In this document: positions 3,410 to 51,513 of the stretch, in pieces
Position numbering within the stretch: position 1 is the stretch's first letter
Layout of the letters: the number at the start of each line of letters is the position of its first letter
Notes under the pieces: model-generated
Databases searched by the model: none
Told to the model about the DNA's origin: nothing
The model's input: the letters and a program-made list of their open reading frames with translations, nothing else
Virus record (IMG/VR): IMGVR_UViG_3300047160_036265
From: a virus
Strand: one strand, 5' to 3'
Length of the DNA stretch: 64,000 nt
Position numbers and translations under genes: made by a program

Positions 3410-3482
3410 TACCCCGTAGGGGAATTGAACCCCTGTTTTAGCCTTGAGAGGGCTATGTCCTGGGCCGCTAGACGAACGGGGC
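3410..3482 (-). tRNA. tRNA-Glu(CUC)
   Basis: Canonical cloverleaf read from the reverse complement: acceptor GCCCCGU/ACGGGGU, anticodon loop CUCUCAA, T-loop GGUUCAAUUCC. Confidence 0.75.
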
Positions 3483-3680
3483 AGTCTCCTTTCATTATAT
3501 AGTCCTCCCGCCAAGACTTGCACTTGGGTTGCCTCGGTGTAGGCGAGGAGTCGTAGCTGCTGGACCACGGGAGGAATCAACGAAACCACAGAACAGGAAT
3601 CAAACAAAACACAATGAATAGGAGGCAATATATCAAGAAAAACAGCCCAATCCTTCCCCACGACATATTGCGCCCTCTAG

Positions 3681-3769
3681 TGGACCGACAGAGGAATCGA
3701 ACCTCCTTCCCTCCTGGGAGGGGCCTTATGGCGACCCAGCCAGGCGACCTACCTCTAGTCGATCAGTCC
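3681..3769 (-). tRNA. tRNA, class II (long variable arm); anticodon uncertain
   Basis: Acceptor GGACUGA/UCGGUCC, T-arm GGAGGUUCGAUUCCUC, variable-arm hairpin CCCUCC-CA-GGAGGG; 89 nt. Confidence 0.5.
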
Positions 3770-3886
3770 AAAGAAGCAGGAGAAATTAACGATAAAGGGG
3801 TTTCTTGTTGACCACCGTGCTACTGTTACACTACATCCCTCCGAAGAGAGACGCCGGATTCGCACCGGACCAGCGGTTTGGAATTA

Positions 3887-3919
3887 GAAGTAACCCTCAT
3901 CTGCACCATCCTGCTTTAG
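3887..3919. repeat. tRNA-associated repeat family A copy (GAAGTAACCC-N4-CTGCACCATCC)
   Basis: Motif lies immediately 3' of tRNA-Gln on the gene strand. A matching GGAGAAAT...GGGGTTTC half sits about 100 nt away at 3787-3815. Confidence 0.6.
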
Positions 3920-3989
3920 CTGCCCGGCAAGGAGTCGAACCTCGATCTTCACGTTCAAAGCGTGACATCCTACCTTTAGACGACCGGGC
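3920..3989 (-). tRNA. tRNA-Gln(UUG)
   Basis: Acceptor GCCCGGU/GCCGGGC, anticodon arm UCACG-CUUUGAA-CGUGA, T-loop GGUUCGACUCC. Confidence 0.7.
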
Positions 3990-4030
3990 AACATTTTTCC
4001 ATCCTACCAACAAAGACACCAGTTGTAAAG

Positions 4031-4101
4031 CTGACCCGCCTGGATTCGCACCAGGACTAGGTGATCCAAAGTCACCTGTGCTACTGTTACACCACGGGTC
4101 A
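4031..4101 (-). tRNA. tRNA-Gln(UUG), G55-type T-loop
   Basis: Acceptor UGACCCG/CGGGUCA, anticodon loop CUUUGGA, T-arm CCUGG-UGCGAAU-CCAGG. Confidence 0.65.
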
Positions 4102-4470
4102 TCACCAGACCGGCACCCCCTCCTGGTCCAGATTTAAGAACTCGTGGGGGTCAACCGGCTCAACCCCGCCCAGGATGCCAGAGGAATACAGTACCTCACC
4201 CCGCTCCTGGTGACTGCTTTCAAACCACCAACCGTCCTCGTCTTCATAGACCTTTGTTACCAGAACAATCTGGCCCAGGCTGCGGGGGTGACACGCTCCC
4301 ACCAGGCGAACGTACTCCCTTGGCCTCGGAATGTAGCCGTTCTGTGGGTTCCAGGTGCTATAGTGCCGCATGAATGACCCGACAGTTGAAGCGTAGCTGA
4401 GGCACTTTCTTGCGGTGAATGGCCTCGGCAATGTCATTACGCATTCTACCGTAAGCCCGCTCCAACGCAA
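4102..4470 (-). CDS. hypothetical protein
   Basis: 122-aa ORF on the gene strand. Confidence 0.4.
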   Translation of the reverse strand: MRWSGLTVECVMTLPRPFTARKCLSYASTVGSFMRHYSTWNPQNGYIPRPREYVRLVGACHPRSLGQIVLVTKVYEDEDGWWFESSHQERGEVLYSSGILGGVEPVDPHEFLNLDQEGVPVW

Positions 4471-48871: not shown

Positions 48872-49130
48872 CGTCGTTCTCCTTTTGTTGTTCGTGGGCC
48901 TTGCCCATTTCTTCGAGGATTCGCAGCGCCTCCTGGCGCTCCTCCTCGGCCTTCGCGTCGTCCCTACGGCGGGTATCCCAGGCTTTCTTGGCAGCCTCGG
49001 AATTCTTGACCTTCTGCTTCTTGACGTTGGCGGTGCCCTGATAAGCGTTGCCCCCAGCGGCAGCGGCGTTGCGCCGGCGAGTAACCCACGCCTTCTTGGC
49101 AGTCTCGGAGCGTTTCTGTGGGGTAGTCAT
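48834..49130 (-). CDS. hypothetical basic protein with internal duplication
   Basis: AKKAWVTRRRN and AAKKAWDTRRRD repeats. Confidence 0.4.
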   Translation of the reverse strand: MTTPQKRSETAKKAWVTRRRNAAAAGGNAYQGTANVKKQKVKNSEAAKKAWDTRRRDDAKAEEERQEALRILEEMGKAHEQQKENDDAGSTGSQGGNG

Positions 49131-49937
49131 ATTGGCATTCTACCTCCCCCTCGCCTTCGTTGTAAAGCTATAAACGAAGCAACCCCCGCTGGTGTCACCC
49201 AGCGGGGGTTGATAAAGCGGAGCCACACAGCTACCAGCATGTGGTTGAAAGGGGAAAAATCGCTCCGTGCTACTTGGGGTGCCGGTCGAATCGGGGATTC
49301 TTCATCGCCTGACTCCGGCATTTAGCTATCAGCGACGGATGCTCCCTCGTTTGCCCGTGCCGCAGGGTCGCCCCTGTAACGAGTTGATTGTTGGCCCCGC
49401 TCCCTCGCCCGACTTTCGCCGGGTTTGGATCAAGCCCCGGCGGGCCTTGCGACCCGCCGGGGGTAGTGAATAGTGTGCAAGTGACGAGCTTGGAGCAATC
49501 TTGGCCCCCAATACCATCACGCCTGTGCGACTCGCATTGCCCGCCAGTTGTGCGGGGGTGTCTGCGGTTTTACTGCGTAGCTCGATGGCGGCAGGGGGTT
49601 TAAGGTTTACCCATTACCTTGGTAAAGTAGGTGTCACTGCTCCACTATCCACCCCAGCCCTTGCGGGCTGGTTTACGCTTCTTGTTTTCAAAGCCCCTGG
49701 GCTGGTTGCCCAGCCCAGGGGTAGTAGACGGTGCAAAGTTGACGAGCTATTCAGCTTTGTTGATCCCCGCACTATGCCCGGCTTTGGTGCGACCCGTATT
49801 CCCGGCAGCATATTATGCCGGCGGTCCACGGGCTTGAGTCCGCTACCGGACGGTGCTTGGGGGTTTAAGGCTGTGTTCCCACAACCTGGGACATGGTTTT
49901 GCCAACCCGCCCCGTCTACCCCAGCCTTTCGGCTGGT
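49131..49937. other. about 0.8-kb noncoding region with internal repeats and strong hairpins
   Basis: Two copies of GGGGGTTTAAGG...CCCCAGCC(C)TT(T/G)CGGGCTGGTTTAC (about 49597 and 49861); perfect hairpins at 49651-49690, 49693-49720 and 49917-49938 (CCAGCC-tetraloop-GGCTGG); CCCCCGCTGG-TGTCACC-CAGCGGGGG at 49178-49214. Confidence 0.5.
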
Positions 49938-50471
49938 TTACTCGAACAGTTCCGCCGGCACGTCGGCGGGCACGTTGATGGTCTTGCTGTTGGCCGTGGC
50001 GATGGCGCTCCGCAGGGAGGCGGCGTACTGAGCCGCCTGGTCGGAGTGCTTGATGGCCTCCTCGACCTTCACGCGACGACGGGCGTACTCCTCGTCGGCC
50101 TTGCGGCTCATCTGCCGGTCGTAGCCGTACCGGGTTTCCCGGCCCGTGTCCGTGGCGGCGCTGCGCCACATATTCTCCAGACGACCGGCCCCGCCCACCA
50201 GCTTGATCGCCAGGCTCAGCGTCATCCGCTTGCCGCCGACCTCGATCTGGGTCTGGGCGTTGAACGCCTGCTGGAGTTCCTGAATCTTGGCGATGGCGAA
50301 GTCCGCCTTCTGGTAGTTCTCGGCAACGGCCTGGGGTGTGGGCTTCCCGGCCTCGTCGTCCTTGAACCCATACAAGCAGTCCTTGAACTGCTTGTCCGCC
50401 ACGTCCTTGCGGACCTTCCAGCGCTTCAGCGCCTCCCGCAACTGGTAGCCGTTCACTTCCTTCGCTGCCAT
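49938..50471 (-). CDS. hypothetical protein
   Basis: 177-aa ORF; the hairpin CCAGCC-GAAA-GGCUGG lies immediately 3' of its stop on the gene strand. Confidence 0.5.
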   Translation of the reverse strand: MAAKEVNGYQLREALKRWKVRKDVADKQFKDCLYGFKDDEAGKPTPQAVAENYQKADFAIAKIQELQQAFNAQTQIEVGGKRMTLSLAIKLVGGAGRLENMWRSAATDTGRETRYGYDRQMSRKADEEYARRRVKVEEAIKHSDQAAQYAASLRSAIATANSKTINVPADVPAELFE

Positions 50472-50528
50472 GTCATGCCTCCTTGTTTGGAGAGAGTTGA
50501 GAAGGTTTCGCGTTACCTGGGTGAGAAT

Positions 50529-50879
50529 TTACCGAAGATCGTCCCGGCTGTCAAGCTCTTTTAATTGCTCCCGGAAAGAAATCTCGGCCTCCCACTCTTG
50601 ATACGTCTGCTCGCGCTTCGGGAATTTGTCGCCGTGGCACATAAAGCATTGAGTGTGGCCGCAGTCGAAGGCGTCTTTTTTCCTGAACCGCCCGATCTGC
50701 TCATCGCACTCGCAGTCAACCACATAGCCACTGACGCCGACCCGTGATATTGTTGTCCAGGTGCCGTCCGGCAGCCGCTTCATGCGGAGAGGGTTGCCCT
50801 CGTTGGATTCGACGTGTGTTCGGCGGTGCTTCTTCCACTGCCGCTTAGACACGAAGAAGTCCTGGTGCCATCGCTTCAT
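50529..50879 (-). CDS. hypothetical Zn-binding protein
   Basis: DCECDEQ..DCGHTQCFMCHGDKF cysteine/histidine cluster. Confidence 0.4.
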   Translation of the reverse strand: MKRWHQDFFVSKRQWKKHRRTHVESNEGNPLRMKRLPDGTWTTISRVGVSGYVVDCECDEQIGRFRKKDAFDCGHTQCFMCHGDKFPKREQTYQEWEAEISFREQLKELDSRDDLR

Positions 50880-50989
50880 TCTGACCTCCGTAATGGGTTA
50901 GGAACTGAATACAGTTCTCGAACCCACTGCGGCGGTCGGTGTTGCGATGGCTCATGGTGACTCCTTGGAAAGAAAATAACGGGGGTGAA

Positions 50990-51440
50990 ATATTCGGGCA
51001 GGGGTCTTTCTTTTGCGTTTGAAGTAACCCTGGCCTGCACCTACCCCCATTATGTATTGAAACCGGAGAAATATTCGGGCAGGGGCTTTCGTTGTGATTG
51101 AAGTAACCCTGACCTGCACCTTCCGGTTATGTTCTCGAATACGAGGGCGGGAGAAATAGTCGCTGCGAGTGTTTTTCAAAACCATTTTCTGAAGTAACCC
51201 GCAACTGCACCGTCCCGCCAAGTACCCCCGCCAGGAATTGAACCCGGCCTTCAACGTCCGAAGCGTTGCGTGCGATGCCGACACACTCCGGGGGCAAGAA
51301 TCTCTGGAGATATAGACGACCAGGGGCTTTTCGACATTAGTGGTGTTGAAGTAACCCTAGCCTGCACCTTCCAGAGAGTATTGGGGCGTGAGAAGTAGCT
51401 CGCCTACGATTTCTCGCAAGAACCCTCTCGCTCACGCCGA
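50990..51440. repeat. tandem array of four repeat-family-A units (about 85 bp each) with two embedded tRNAs and one repeat-C copy; candidate Y-RNA-like or tRNA-derived small RNA array next to rsr
   Basis: GAAGTAACCC-N4-CTGCACC at 51021, 51100, 51191 and 51348, each preceded by the GG(A/C)GAAATA(T/G)TCG..GGG..TTTC half; sits directly downstream (on the gene strand) of the Ro60-like gene. Confidence 0.55.
51223..51295 (-). tRNA. tRNA-Arg(UCG)
   Basis: Acceptor GCCCCCG/CGGGGGU, D-arm GUGUGUCGGCAUCGCAC, anticodon arm CAACG-CUUCGGA-CGUUG, T-arm GCCGGGUUCAAUUCCUGGC. Confidence 0.6.
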
Positions 51441-51441
51441 G

Positions 51442-51513
51442 TACCCCGTGCGGGAATTGAACCTGCTCTTTTACCTTCGGAGGGTAACGTGCTGTCCGGC
51501 ACACTCACGGGGT
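51442..51513 (-). tRNA. tRNA-Arg(CCG)
   Basis: Acceptor ACCCCGU/ACGGGGU, D-arm GUGUGCCGGACAGCAC, anticodon arm UUACC-CUCCGAA-GGUAA, T-arm GCAGG-UUCAAUU-CCCGC. Confidence 0.6.

Follow-up and report, generated by a model that had tools for sequence, protein, structure and literature searches.

Huge phages with genomes of up to 735 kb carry as many as 67 tRNAs per complete genome, and phages above 200 kb can encode up to 15 aminoacyl-tRNA synthetases (aaRS) as well as EF-Tu, EF-G and EF-Ts; the tRNAs differ in sequence from those of the host, and a role in redirecting translation was proposed (Al-Shayeb et al. 2020, PMC7162821). Phage genomes from soil reach 676 kb (PMC11748809). Mycobacteriophages such as Myrna and ET08 combine tens of tRNAs with a Ro60 orthologue, and in 22 phages YrlA-type RNAs, which contain a permuted tRNA-like domain, lie on the same strand as Ro60 and less than 4 kb from it (Chen et al. 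2014, PMC4201824). Among jumbo phages, a small subset has a TROVE protein in an RNA repair platform (Iyer et al. 2021, PMC7824862). Additionally, tRNA array units have been described in the chromosomes or megaplasmids of some Actinobacteria, Firmicutes and Cyanobacteria. The nearest precedent for an altered tRNA elbow is the non-proteinogenic tRNA-Gly of Staphylococcus, which lacks G18 and G19 as well as U55 and C56 (PMC4574755). Here we describe the tRNA arrays of the IMG/VR virus record IMGVR_UViG_3300047160_036265, analyzed as one stretch of 64,000 nucleotides (the window), in which tRNAs with two forms of the 18-55 elbow pair were found together with elements classed as Y RNAs and a Ro60 gene.

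The window resembled the huge phages of PMC7162821 in having a large tRNA set, aaRS genes and EF-Tu; the difference was that 52-59 tRNA genes lay in one 48-kb stretch, with four amino acids missing.

tRNA genes with two elbow forms

Using default settings, ARAGORN revealed 48 tRNA genes in the window, all on the minus strand between positions 3409 and 51513, and none in 10 dinucleotide-preserving shuffles. The Rfam tRNA model (RF00005; gathering cut-off, 29 bits) matched 49 loci: with fast filters, 45 passed the gathering score, and laxer filters added four of at least 29 bits. The union of the two methods contained 54 tRNA genes. A covariance model built from 42 class I tRNAs of the window (R1) was run unfiltered over the whole window and gave 58 minus-strand matches of at least 31.5 bits (16 of them outside the training set), followed by a gap down to 24 bits; the top plus-strand match, the antisense of a tRNA, reached only 17.5 bits. 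Because a class I model cannot score a class II-like shape, a class II-like tRNA-Trp at 22908-22991 was added separately, which brought the total to 59 tRNA or tRNA-like genes. Five extra fragments, mostly a T-arm with an acceptor strand, scored 19-24 bits with R1 (6179-6222, 9507-9562, 27746-27787, 30445-30515 and 39797-39859). The first-pass annotation had described about 58 such genes in a large, strand-pure complement with many repeated anticodons, and the total of 59 bore this out. Low scores or re-orientation of most genes by automated callers, which it had named as grounds for doubt, were not seen, as most genes were confirmed in the orientation it had given. The clusters it had listed were recovered, and its list was incomplete, as genes also lay at 5.5, 11.4, 12.1, 12.7, 14.5, 14.9, 20.1, 22.8-23.0 and 34.4 kb. 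Hereafter, all features are on the minus strand, paired numbers in parentheses are the Rfam and R1 scores in bits, and these genes were called by ARAGORN with default settings unless other callers, a lowered threshold (-ps90) or intron mode (-i) are named.

The repeated anticodons had been taken as isoacceptor duplicates, a description that applied to one pair only. Two tRNA-Gly(GCC) genes (27291-27364, Rfam 55.9; 31539-31612, 56.0/69.9) were 99% identical and lay inside a 78-nt repeat, the only recent duplication, whereas all other same-anticodon copies were 56-76% identical and often differed in architecture. In particular, 13 genes had G at T-loop position 55, mostly as UGC in place of UUC. 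All 13 had A in place of G18 (for example, D-loop AACAGUA compared with AAUGGUA) and retained G19 and C56. In contrast, GG was present in the D-loop of 38 of the 39 U55 or C55 genes with scorable D-loops (Fisher's exact test, p of about 2e-11). The A18/G55 genes formed perfect cloverleaves, were interspersed among the U55 genes rather than collected in a single block, and spanned 10 amino acids (Val, Gln, Glu, Ala, Asn, Pro, Cys, Met, Lys and Gly).

Nine anticodons were represented with one copy in each elbow form. For Glu(CUC), the canonical copy was located at 3409-3482 (59.7/76.0) and the A18/G55 copy at 31456-31528 (39.9/62.0); the corresponding pairs were 32091-32163 (47.5/69.9) and 30119-30190 (49.8/64.0) for Glu(UUC), 3919-3990 (60.1/77.0) and 4030-4101 (57.8/68.3) for Gln(UUG), 32560-32631 (61.4/77.9) and 32710-32781 (52.2/69.0) for Gln(CUG), 32996-33067 (57.2/72.8) and 31876-31948 (51.1/60.8) for Asn(GUU), and 33342-33417 (60.6/64.4) and 33424-33497 (no Rfam match; R1 50.9) for Pro(CGG). 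The canonical tRNA-Lys(CUU) at 29108-29183 (45.1/55.5) was paired with an A18/G55 type with the T-loop CGCGAUA at 29033-29104 (R1 45.7), and a tRNA-Cys(GCA) with U73 and a reduced D-arm at 5514-5583 (38.4/33.7) with a class II-like tRNA-Cys(GCA) at 33655-33739 (52.1/35.5), which combines U73, a long variable arm and the A18/G55 elbow. The A18/G55 form of tRNA-Met(CAU) lay at 34395-34467 (56.9/71.1), and further CAU genes were present at 22833-22904 (66.7/77.1), 39986-40058 (49.2/61.8) and 40153-40226 (34.9/55.0), the last with a weak D-arm and of a type shared with the related phages L002 and L029. Four anticodons occurred in the G55 form only: Val(UAC) at 3502-3574 (no Rfam match; R1 59.1), Val(GAC) at 29352-29423 (52.8/70.5), Ala(GGC) at 30829-30900 (48.6/64.1, from Rfam and R1) and Gly(UCC) at 11400-11473 (43.6/47.4, not among the default ARAGORN calls), which has the T-loop GGCAGCA and a D-loop with CAG. 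Rfam failed wholly on two of the 13 G55 genes (3502 and 33424), and the gene at 29033 was found only by ARAGORN -ps90 and R1.

U73 in tRNA-Cys, G73 in tRNA-Trp, and U1 together with G73 in tRNA-Gln are marks of amino acid identity. These nucleotides were present in the paired versions, with U73 in both tRNA-Cys, G73 in both tRNA-Trp and U1 with G73 in all tRNA-Gln genes. Judged from their sequences, the repeated anticodons are old, structurally different paralogues that keep their amino acid identity elements.

An elbow pattern search of IMG/VR returned 96 stretches of DNA. Their roughly 590 unique tRNAs, bait genes excluded, inform on covariation and not on frequency, as the loci had been picked for one such gene. 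D-loop AG was found in 180 of 195 G55 tRNAs and D-loop GG in 378 of 392 U55 tRNAs (p of about 1e-123). Some phage arrays were wholly or almost wholly of the G55 type (16/16, 15/15, 25/25 and 33/34), and because of these arrays we infer that the A18/G55 elbow must work in translation. Near-pure A18/G55 arrays of 15-33 genes were seen at the loci L054, L060, L089, L106 and L119, and also at L058, L075 and L094; their G+C content was mostly 53-63% (45% in L058 and 48% in L075). Ser and Tyr tRNAs hardly ever had G55, with one G55 gene each compared with 29 and 9 U55 genes, respectively. Carrying both elbow forms of one anticodon is unusual, as elsewhere only 8 of 522 anticodon sets contained both. 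Two structurally different versions of many isoacceptors were present in the related phage L002 as well, by means other than the elbow: long-variable-arm versions of tRNA-Lys(CUU) and tRNA-Asn(GUU) (13058-13141 and 17717-17806 of that contig) lay beside canonical versions, and Glu tRNAs with A54 T-loops and Gln tRNAs with odd D-arms were also present. Paired canonical and non-canonical isoacceptors thus recur in this phage group. No description of an A18-G55 pair was found in the papers searched, and no cultured phage with G55-type tRNAs was found; the Myrna array was entirely U55, and L089 had no match. A non-proteinogenic role in the style of the staphylococcal tRNA-Gly was considered for the A18/G55 tRNAs and rejected, as whole phage arrays are of this type.

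Y RNAs and Ro60

A repeat search of the arrays revealed a 35-nt motif in four copies, each beginning at a tRNA 3' end, and one copy coincided with a weak Rfam YrlA match (28807-28927, 28.2 bits). The pattern GGAYGGTGCANNNNNGGGTTACTTC, with up to 3 mismatches, had 10 matches in the window, all of them minus-strand, where none was expected. The ten elements (Y1-Y10) shared a common plan. The outer part is a 7-bp terminal stem (for example, GGCAGGA/UCCUGCC, GACCGGA/UCCGGUC or CUCUGGA/UCCAGAG), which is followed by an internal loop in which NGGUGCA faces a U-rich 9-mer (5' and 3' sides, respectively); the inner part is an 8-bp stem that ends in GGG/CCC and leads into UUACUUC and a variable insert. 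In the stems of Y1-Y10, 145 of 150 positions were paired, with many two-sided changes. The elements E1-E4 were also considered as terminators because of their U-run, and this was rejected, as the U-rich part is the 3' side of a conserved internal loop beside a covarying stem.

Three elements were long forms. Y1 (3775-3915; motif, fold and stems) and Y3 (28789-28945; Rfam YrlA 28.2 bits against a cut-off of 69, E 0.00018) contained inserts that run from a T-arm through an acceptor-like hairpin to a D-arm, the circularly permuted tRNA-like domain that defines YrlA; in Y2 (27370-27506; motif, fold and stems), the T-arm lay between two GCAA hairpins, so that only part of this domain was present. 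The inner T-arm (TGCGAAT) and D-arm (AACAGTA) of Y1 were of the A18/G55 type, and since this domain pairs a UGCGAAU T-loop with an AACAGUA D-loop, it lends independent support to the A18-G55 pair. The other seven were short forms that lacked a tRNA-like domain, like YrlB: Y4 (32169-32238), Y5 (32635-32708), Y7 (51061-51128), Y8 (51146-51219) and Y9 (51302-51376), each identified by motif, fold and stems, and Y6 (50981-51048) and Y10 (53511-53597), identified by motif and stems. Part of the tRNA-like signal near 3.85, 27.4 and 28.85 kb, inside clusters listed by the first-pass annotation, belongs to these Y-type RNAs and not to tRNAs.

The Ro60/TROVE protein was encoded at 51570-53483 (Pfam TROVE, 5.5e-23) and was 53% identical over its full length to Planctomycetota rsr. 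The longest open reading frame (ORF) began at a GTG at 53588 (672 aa) and overlapped Y10; because homologues begin at ATG 53483 (MSKFAFEKKD), we took the protein as 637 aa, which placed Y10 27 nt upstream of the start codon. Y6-Y9 lay within 600 nt downstream of the Ro60 gene, interleaved with two tRNA-Arg genes, and Y6-Y10 were all on the same strand as Ro60 and less than 4 kb from it, as is described for YrlA. Y1-Y5 were embedded between tRNAs in other arrays, 17-50 kb away. Six of the ten elements started 1-3 nt past a tRNA, and five ended 3-6 nt before the next tRNA or tRNA-like gene.

Elsewhere, the Y motif was found in one more huge viral contig (343 kb), again between tRNAs, and in 15 bacterial loci, mostly from Planctomycetota and some from Acidoferrales and Verrucomicrobiales. 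In Planctomycetota, a long form lay just upstream and a short form just downstream of a TROVE gene whose product was 53% identical to the window Ro60 over the full length; this was checked by translation in L226, L232 and L234, where the L232 frame ends after 289 codons and its comparison is limited to the N-terminal 281 residues. When two window copies were aligned with twelve bacterial short forms, 95.7% of cells were paired and 7 of 15 pairs showed compensatory change; none of 500 shuffles equaled this, and at most 58% were paired when the partners were slid. The Planctomycetota long form next to rsr scored 40.8 bits with Rfam YrlA (RF02553), whose cut-off of 69 bits was reached by no locus. 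The GNCGAAN0-1G motif, a putative Ro60 contact, was present in none of the 10 copies, all of which had GG(A/U)NGGUGCA there. Because the same RNA flanks Ro60 genes in Planctomycetota, the ten elements are Y RNAs as judged by position and architecture, with Ro60 binding predicted, and on the same grounds they make up a Y RNA subfamily that lacks GNCGAAN0-1G and is shared with Planctomycetota. The named Ro60 homologues came from Gemmataceae and Planctomycetaceae (51-56% identity), which is a hint at the host or donor rather than proof; an IMG/VR scan with the Ro60 protein gave no relatives.

Decoding set and protein genes

About 52 genes had a normal 7-nt anticodon loop, and these covered 16 amino acids. 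Ala was served by the GGC gene described above and a weak tRNA-like gene, possibly CGC (30195-30264; ARAGORN -ps90, R1 36.5). Arg had ACG (30657-30731, 33.2/52.4), UCG (51222-51295, 40.0/63.0), CCG (51441-51513, 45.8/68.5) and two GCG genes (29811-29884, 27.3/65.9; 31310-31383, with acceptor-stem mismatches, ARAGORN -ps90, R1 47.3). Asn had, in addition to its two GUU genes, one interrupted gene and a weak AUU gene (40444-40512, 30.9/36.8). Asp(GUC) was present once (33501-33574, 62.0/74.2), and His(GUG) twice (29427-29501, 63.4/72.7; 33579-33653, 34.6/46.9). Gly had CCC (12067-12138, 69.1/73.4) beside its two GCC genes and UCC, and Ile had GAU (28948-29021, 58.5/71.6) and two UAU genes (27668-27741, 56.5/66.1; 39704-39775, 56.8/70.3). 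Two Lys(UUU) genes (14450-14522, 76.2/75.4; 31954-32027, 26.7/49.5) accompanied the two CUU genes. Pro had two UGG genes (20077-20151, 64.5/61.6; 33262-33338, 54.9/64.6), a weak tRNA-like gene with a UGG-type loop and no D-stem (32829-32897; Rfam 26.1, R1 41.5), two GGG genes (26048-26121, 41.8/60.1; 33182-33257, 54.6/61.6) and two CGG genes. Thr had CGU (25973-26044, 58.7/71.2) and GGU (27509-27580, 69.7/71.1), both with the T-loop UCC (C55), and Val had CAC (27918-27989, 61.6/72.4) in addition to UAC and GAC. Trp(CCA) had a canonical gene (26126-26200, 65.1/62.6) and the class II-like gene at 22908-22991, with G73, a 6-bp anticodon stem and a 15-nt variable arm (Rfam tRNA-Sec 41.4 bits, below its cut-off of 47). 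Cys (two GCA), Gln (two UUG, two CUG), Glu (two UUC, two CUC) and Met (four CAU, which could also be Ile2 or initiator) completed the set.

The anticodon list of the first-pass annotation was essentially right, with corrections for Glu(UUC), of which there were two genes and not three, and for Pro(UGG), Pro(GGG) and Lys(CUU), each with two. It had reported no Leu, Ser, Tyr, Phe or Ala tRNA; the absence of the first four from the window was borne out, while Ala was present as the GGC gene. Its suggestion that class II-like genes might supply some of the missing amino acids found no support: the two genes with a long arm have Trp identity (22908, CCA/G73) and Cys identity (33655, GCA/U73, with the A18/G55 elbow), and three others are hairpin-armed.

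At least seven genes lacked a 7-nt loop with U33 and a readable anticodon (3680, 12744, 14864, 27585, 29737, 32241 and 40860). In three of them, the acceptor, D and T arms were perfect but an elongated closed hairpin stood where the anticodon loop would be: 3680-3769, with 22 nt between the stem strands (Rfam 34.2, R1 46.6, alignment), 40860-40952, with a long GCAA-capped hairpin (Rfam 45.0, R1 32.1), and 12744-12835 (59.8/47.6). The last has the loop CUGUU-[21 nt]-AA, which is an Asn-GUU loop broken after position 36; ARAGORN called it Gln by default and, with -i, Asn GUU with an insert of 21 nt. We know of no bacterial enzyme that would excise these inserts. The gene at 14864-14951 (40.4/39.4, alignment) had a D-arm insertion and a 6- or 8-nt anticodon loop, and its ARAGORN call as tRNA-Leu(GAG) is doubtful. 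At 27585-27665 (ARAGORN -ps90, R1 31.5, Rfam Sec 15.4), an irregular core was combined with good acceptor and T arms, and a 3' CCA was encoded; at 32241-32309 (Rfam 31.9, R1 37.9, alignment) the anticodon loop was truncated. The tRNA at 29737-29809 (Rfam 45.4, R1 52.1; T-loop UUUAACU) had an 8-nt anticodon loop, ACUUUAGA, that could present UUA or UUU; Mycobacterium phage Myrna (L239, 5096-5167) annotates a 'tRNA Sup TTA', and ARAGORN is ambiguous there as at 29737. An alternative code or suppressors as a general feature were rejected, as TAA, TAG and TGA all end ORFs (TAA in 28 of 94) and long genes are intact in code 11. The intron-mode calls of a Pyl(CUA) with a 149-nt intron and a Leu(GAG) with a 1042-nt intron were also rejected, because their basis is isolated T-arms (R1, 19.9 bits at 9507-9562) and the Leu call spans ORFs.

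Codon use was assessed with 94 selected minus-strand ORFs of at least 50 codons (15,539 codons), which were GC3-rich with clear codon bias. About 76-78% of their codons were readable by the window tRNAs through Watson-Crick and G-U wobble pairing, and those not readable belonged to the four missing amino acids (19.7%) or were GCA, ACA and AGR. Gene number was uncoupled from codon frequency, with 6-7 genes for Pro (5.5% of codons) and 1-2 for Ala (8.2%). G34 anticodons serve the Arg, Pro, Thr, Val, Gly and Ala boxes and Ile uses UAU, which makes the set independent of inosine or lysidine formation.

Spacings of 1-12 nt were common between neighboring tRNA, tRNA-like and Y RNA genes. A 3' CCA was encoded by none of the 48 tRNA genes that ARAGORN called; in 44 of 48, the discriminator was followed by C-U (CUU, CUG, CUA or CUC), and this conserved trailer may be a processing signal. 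A sigma-70 promoter and terminator scan of 25.8-34.6 kb gave no enrichment over shuffles; the phage has sigma-like proteins of its own. A 14-bp hairpin with a T-run, resembling a terminator, and a 10-of-12 sigma-70-like promoter (33782-33812 and 34499-34528) flank the lone tRNA-Met(CAU) at 34395-34467 and three small ORFs, which suggests a separate transcription unit. Additionally, GGUGGAAUGUUGGCUUAGAAGCAGCCACCAUCUAAGGAGUGACAGGGCACCGG at 22774-22826, 10 nt downstream of a tRNA-Met, matched large-subunit rRNA (27.9 bits, E 0.00027; archaeal model positions 1181-1232). We take this element to be closely like the 58-nt L11-binding GTPase-associated center of 23S rRNA, of which it could be a decoy or regulatory mimic.

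Every credible gene over the 64 kb was on the minus strand, shared with the tRNA and Y RNA genes, and many ORFs were small or without a known family; the G+C content was 54-60%. The translation proteins comprised a class II lysyl-tRNA synthetase (211-1563; Pfam, NCBIfam PRK00484 497.9 bits, cut-off 468), EF-Tu (24683-25861; Pfam, NCBIfam 614 bits, cut-off 479) and a short, 404-aa cysteinyl-tRNA synthetase (56106-57320; Pfam, TIGR00435 333 bits, cut-off 340), which is about 80 residues shorter than cellular homologues; the C-terminal domain PF23493 was unrecorded in it and its close relatives. There were also a 258-aa fragment like the AlaRS catalytic domain (8375-9151; Pfam tRNA-synt_2c 2.8e-21, NCBIfam far below cut-off) and a 232-aa TrpRS-like fragment about 900 nt downstream of the class II-like tRNA-Trp (21298-21996; Pfam tRNA-synt_1b 2.9e-28, TIGR00233 97 bits, cut-off 177). 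A polynucleotide kinase/HAD 3'-phosphatase-like protein (61225-62382; Pfam AAA_33, PNK3P and HAD; TIGR01663 6.5e-26, below cut-off) adjoined an NAD-dependent DNA ligase, and an RNase H-like protein was also present. Other genes encoded a 607-aa piece of DNA polymerase III alpha with NTPase and finger domains only (34560-36383), two sigma-70-like proteins (7679-8362 and 47105-47668) and, at 16683-19398, a MoxR-type AAA ATPase adjoining a 507-aa protein of unknown function (PHROG 33218). At 43049-44996, a ThiF/E1-like protein of 244 aa adjoined a JAB-domain protein of 337 aa, followed by ORFs of 304 and 378 aa that had no family match; this neighborhood may be a ubiquitin-like conjugation or deconjugation module.

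PHROG families matched 8 of 10 proteins tested. The closest EF-Tu relatives (69-77% identity, where bacterial EF-Tu reached about 60%) lay on IMG/VR viral contigs of 188, 223, 436 and 533 kb. Those contigs had 6-27 tRNAs within 21 kb of the EF-Tu gene, in most contigs exactly the Leu, Ser, Tyr and Phe genes that the window lacks, and because of these sets the missing four are probably located elsewhere in the genome. Dense tRNA arrays occur together with aaRS and a translation factor diverged from their cellular counterparts, as expected of a translation island. The window was 99.99% identical to a 13.4-kb ENA contig. CysRS relatives with 88% identity came from soil metagenomes, in the same order of kinase-phosphatase, ligase, CysRS and TROVE; the nearest named cellular CysRS was cyanobacterial (37-41%), and four unnamed metagenomic proteins reached 47-51%. 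A protein identical to the window Ro60 is on record for a 669,797-bp contig. Megablast of 25-45 kb against the GenBank phage collection gave single tRNAs only, and the 507-aa ORF had no match there; EF-Tu matches in that collection were rejected as bacterial contaminants (about 60% identity). An IMG/VR scan with a DUF4288 protein found no relatives. A DUF6717 ORF in the arrays was discarded as a route to comparative arrays, since it is a common bacterial gene (80 loci in a metagenome scan, 38-58% identity, 15 long ones tRNA-free). No cellular housekeeping context was seen in the 64 kb, and the nearest relatives were viral contigs. The genome may be about 670 kb in size, and the host may belong to Planctomycetota or be some other soil bacterium.

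Explanations and comparison with known systems

We consider it likely that the window represents a tRNA and translation island from a huge uncultured phage, with paired decoders as alternative forms and with Y RNAs accompanying Ro60. The genes, structures, covariation, neighborhood and relatives behind this account were observed directly. In such an island, long minus-strand precursors would be transcribed and cut by host enzymes, by RNase P at the 5' ends and by RNase Z or exonucleases at the 3' ends, which a CCA-adding enzyme would then complete. The same cuts would release the Y RNAs, because these sit flush between tRNAs. The decoders would replace or back up the host tRNA pool for most codons; they cover nearly every codon of their 16 amino acids, with G34, U34 and C34 isoacceptors in four-codon boxes, and because of this near-complete cover the set looks as if it replaces the host pool and does not just top it up for a few rare codons. 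Charging and delivery of the window tRNAs would fall to the phage LysRS, CysRS and EF-Tu. Ro60, the ten Y RNAs and the kinase-phosphatase would handle misfolded or cut RNA through surveillance and end-healing, a proposal based on the roles described for bacterial Rsr/Y RNA and T4 Pnkp. One decoder in two shapes would be an insurance when shape-reading host factors or defense nucleases disable one form, and alternative functional forms are the likeliest status of these pairs. In a bolder version, the phage would keep orthogonal decoder versions against shape-reading nucleases, the ten Y RNAs would arm Ro60 as a tRNA-mimicking surveillance system or decoy, and A18-G55 would be a general alternative tRNA elbow, widespread in phages; taken as a whole, this is a tentative idea that we regard as rather unlikely.

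Several points weigh against the account of a phage translation island with paired decoders. Expression, processing, charging and defense evasion are what we infer from the genes, and evasion in particular is deduced from shape differences only; to our knowledge, positions 18 and 55 are not read by any tRNA-targeting defense system. Of the 59 genes, at least 7 have no normal 7-nt loop and those at 30195, 31310, 32829 and 40444 are weak, so that decaying copies may be among them. No RNA ligase (Rnl1, Rnl2 or RtcB) was detected in the window, nor any capsid, terminase or tail gene, and IMG/VR membership and gene content are the basis of the viral assignment. The Y RNA motif is unlike the published YrlA motif GNCGAAN0-1G. 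The elbow types could stem from the merging of two phage tRNA sets and serve no function today, and, depending on the tRNA pool of the host, the set may serve codon-usage compensation.

A merger of U55 and G55 phage sets, with decaying copies and no function beyond redundancy, is a serious rival, which we nevertheless judge unlikely. It would explain why other arrays are almost pure for one elbow type and usually have single anticodons, both forms being so rare elsewhere, and why same-anticodon copies are as divergent as unrelated tRNAs; the tRNA-like genes with damaged D-arms or anticodon loops and the five low-scoring fragments (19-24 bits) are also as expected from it. However, the G55 genes keep their cloverleaf, the covarying tertiary pair and the identity nucleotides and are interspersed with U55 genes, the tRNA-like domain of Y1 carries the A18/G55 pair as well, and L002 keeps dual versions by other means, which argues for a maintained duality. 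Codon-usage compensation, the textbook account of phage tRNAs, in which tRNAs match codons that are common in phage genes and poorly served by the host pool, seems distinctly unlikely here. In its favor are the GC3-rich, biased ORFs and the presence of tRNAs that read rare codons, for example two Ile-UAU genes for AUA, but preferred and rare codons of 16 amino acids are covered alike, G34, U34 and C34 occur together in several boxes, gene number is independent of codon frequency, and nine anticodons are doubled in different architectures.

It is very improbable that the window is not a phage at all and is instead a tRNA array unit from the chromosome or a megaplasmid of a bacterium. Bacterial-type genes (EF-Tu, aaRS, sigma-70-like proteins, Pol III alpha and LigA), the close match of Ro60 and Y RNAs in Planctomycetota chromosomes, the identical Ro60 recorded on a 670-kb contig and the lack of a virion gene in the window would fit a cellular replicon. 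Yet the nearest EF-Tu proteins are on IMG/VR viral contigs with the same tRNA-rich neighborhood, the cellular EF-Tu being only about 60% identical; the nearest named cellular CysRS reaches only 37-41%, the aaRS genes are truncated, many ORFs have no family, the genes keep to a single strand over 64 kb, and PHROG families match 8 of the 10 tested proteins.

Large tRNA sets in huge phages are already known, and the count reported here is a strong further example; when Leu, Ser, Tyr and Phe genes from elsewhere in the genome are counted in, the total is probably higher than the published maximum of 67. The pairing of G18/U55 with A18/G55 isoacceptors appears to be new, as does the array of ten Y RNAs embedded among tRNAs. 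If the A18/G55 interpretation is true, the near-invariant G18-U55 tertiary pair has a covarying alternative that is common in phage tRNAs, and this would bear on the host factors needed or avoided, such as TruB, TrmH, RNase P, the ribosomal L1 stalk and T-boxes. As A18-G55 lowers the scores of standard tRNA callers, it also bears on annotation and on the rules of tRNA structure. The nine two-form anticodons in one phage provide natural matched pairs for asking whether tRNA shape is a target of conflict. The tRNA-bounded Y RNAs suggest small-RNA production by tRNA punctuation and an unexpected viral expansion of the Ro60 system, with a Y subfamily that is shared with Planctomycetota and lies below the Rfam model cut-off.

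Among the known systems, the huge phages of PMC7162821 are described with neither pairs of a canonical and a non-canonical tRNA for one anticodon nor A18/G55 elbows nor a Ro60 accompanied by Y RNAs, and the words Ro60 and TROVE are absent from the main text of that study. The tRNAs of Myrna are all of the U55 type, whereas the window mixes elbow types, and, in contrast to the mycobacteriophages, it has ten Y RNAs, five of which lie 17-50 kb from Ro60 between tRNAs. Relative to phage YrlA, the 5' motif is GGAYGGUGCAG...GGGUUACUUC instead of GNCGAAN0-1G, and the YrlA score is 28 bits against the cut-off of 69. Among bacterial rsr-Y modules (Salmonella rsr-yrlBA and the Planctomycetota type), the Planctomycetota arrangement, a long form upstream and a short form downstream of rsr, has the same stems and loop motifs; bacteria have 1-2 copies beside rsr, whereas the phage has ten, mostly tRNA-bounded and one with an A18/G55 domain. 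With T4 Pnkp/Rnl1, the window has a kinase and 3'-phosphatase protein in common, without the ligase. The staphylococcal tRNA-Gly variants are few and Gly-specific, bind EF-Tu weakly and feed cell-wall synthesis (PMC4574755). In contrast, the window variants keep G19 and C56 and exchange only positions 18 and 55, serve at least 10 amino acids, and form entire sets in some phages; from this comparison, the A18/G55 variant is most likely proteinogenic.

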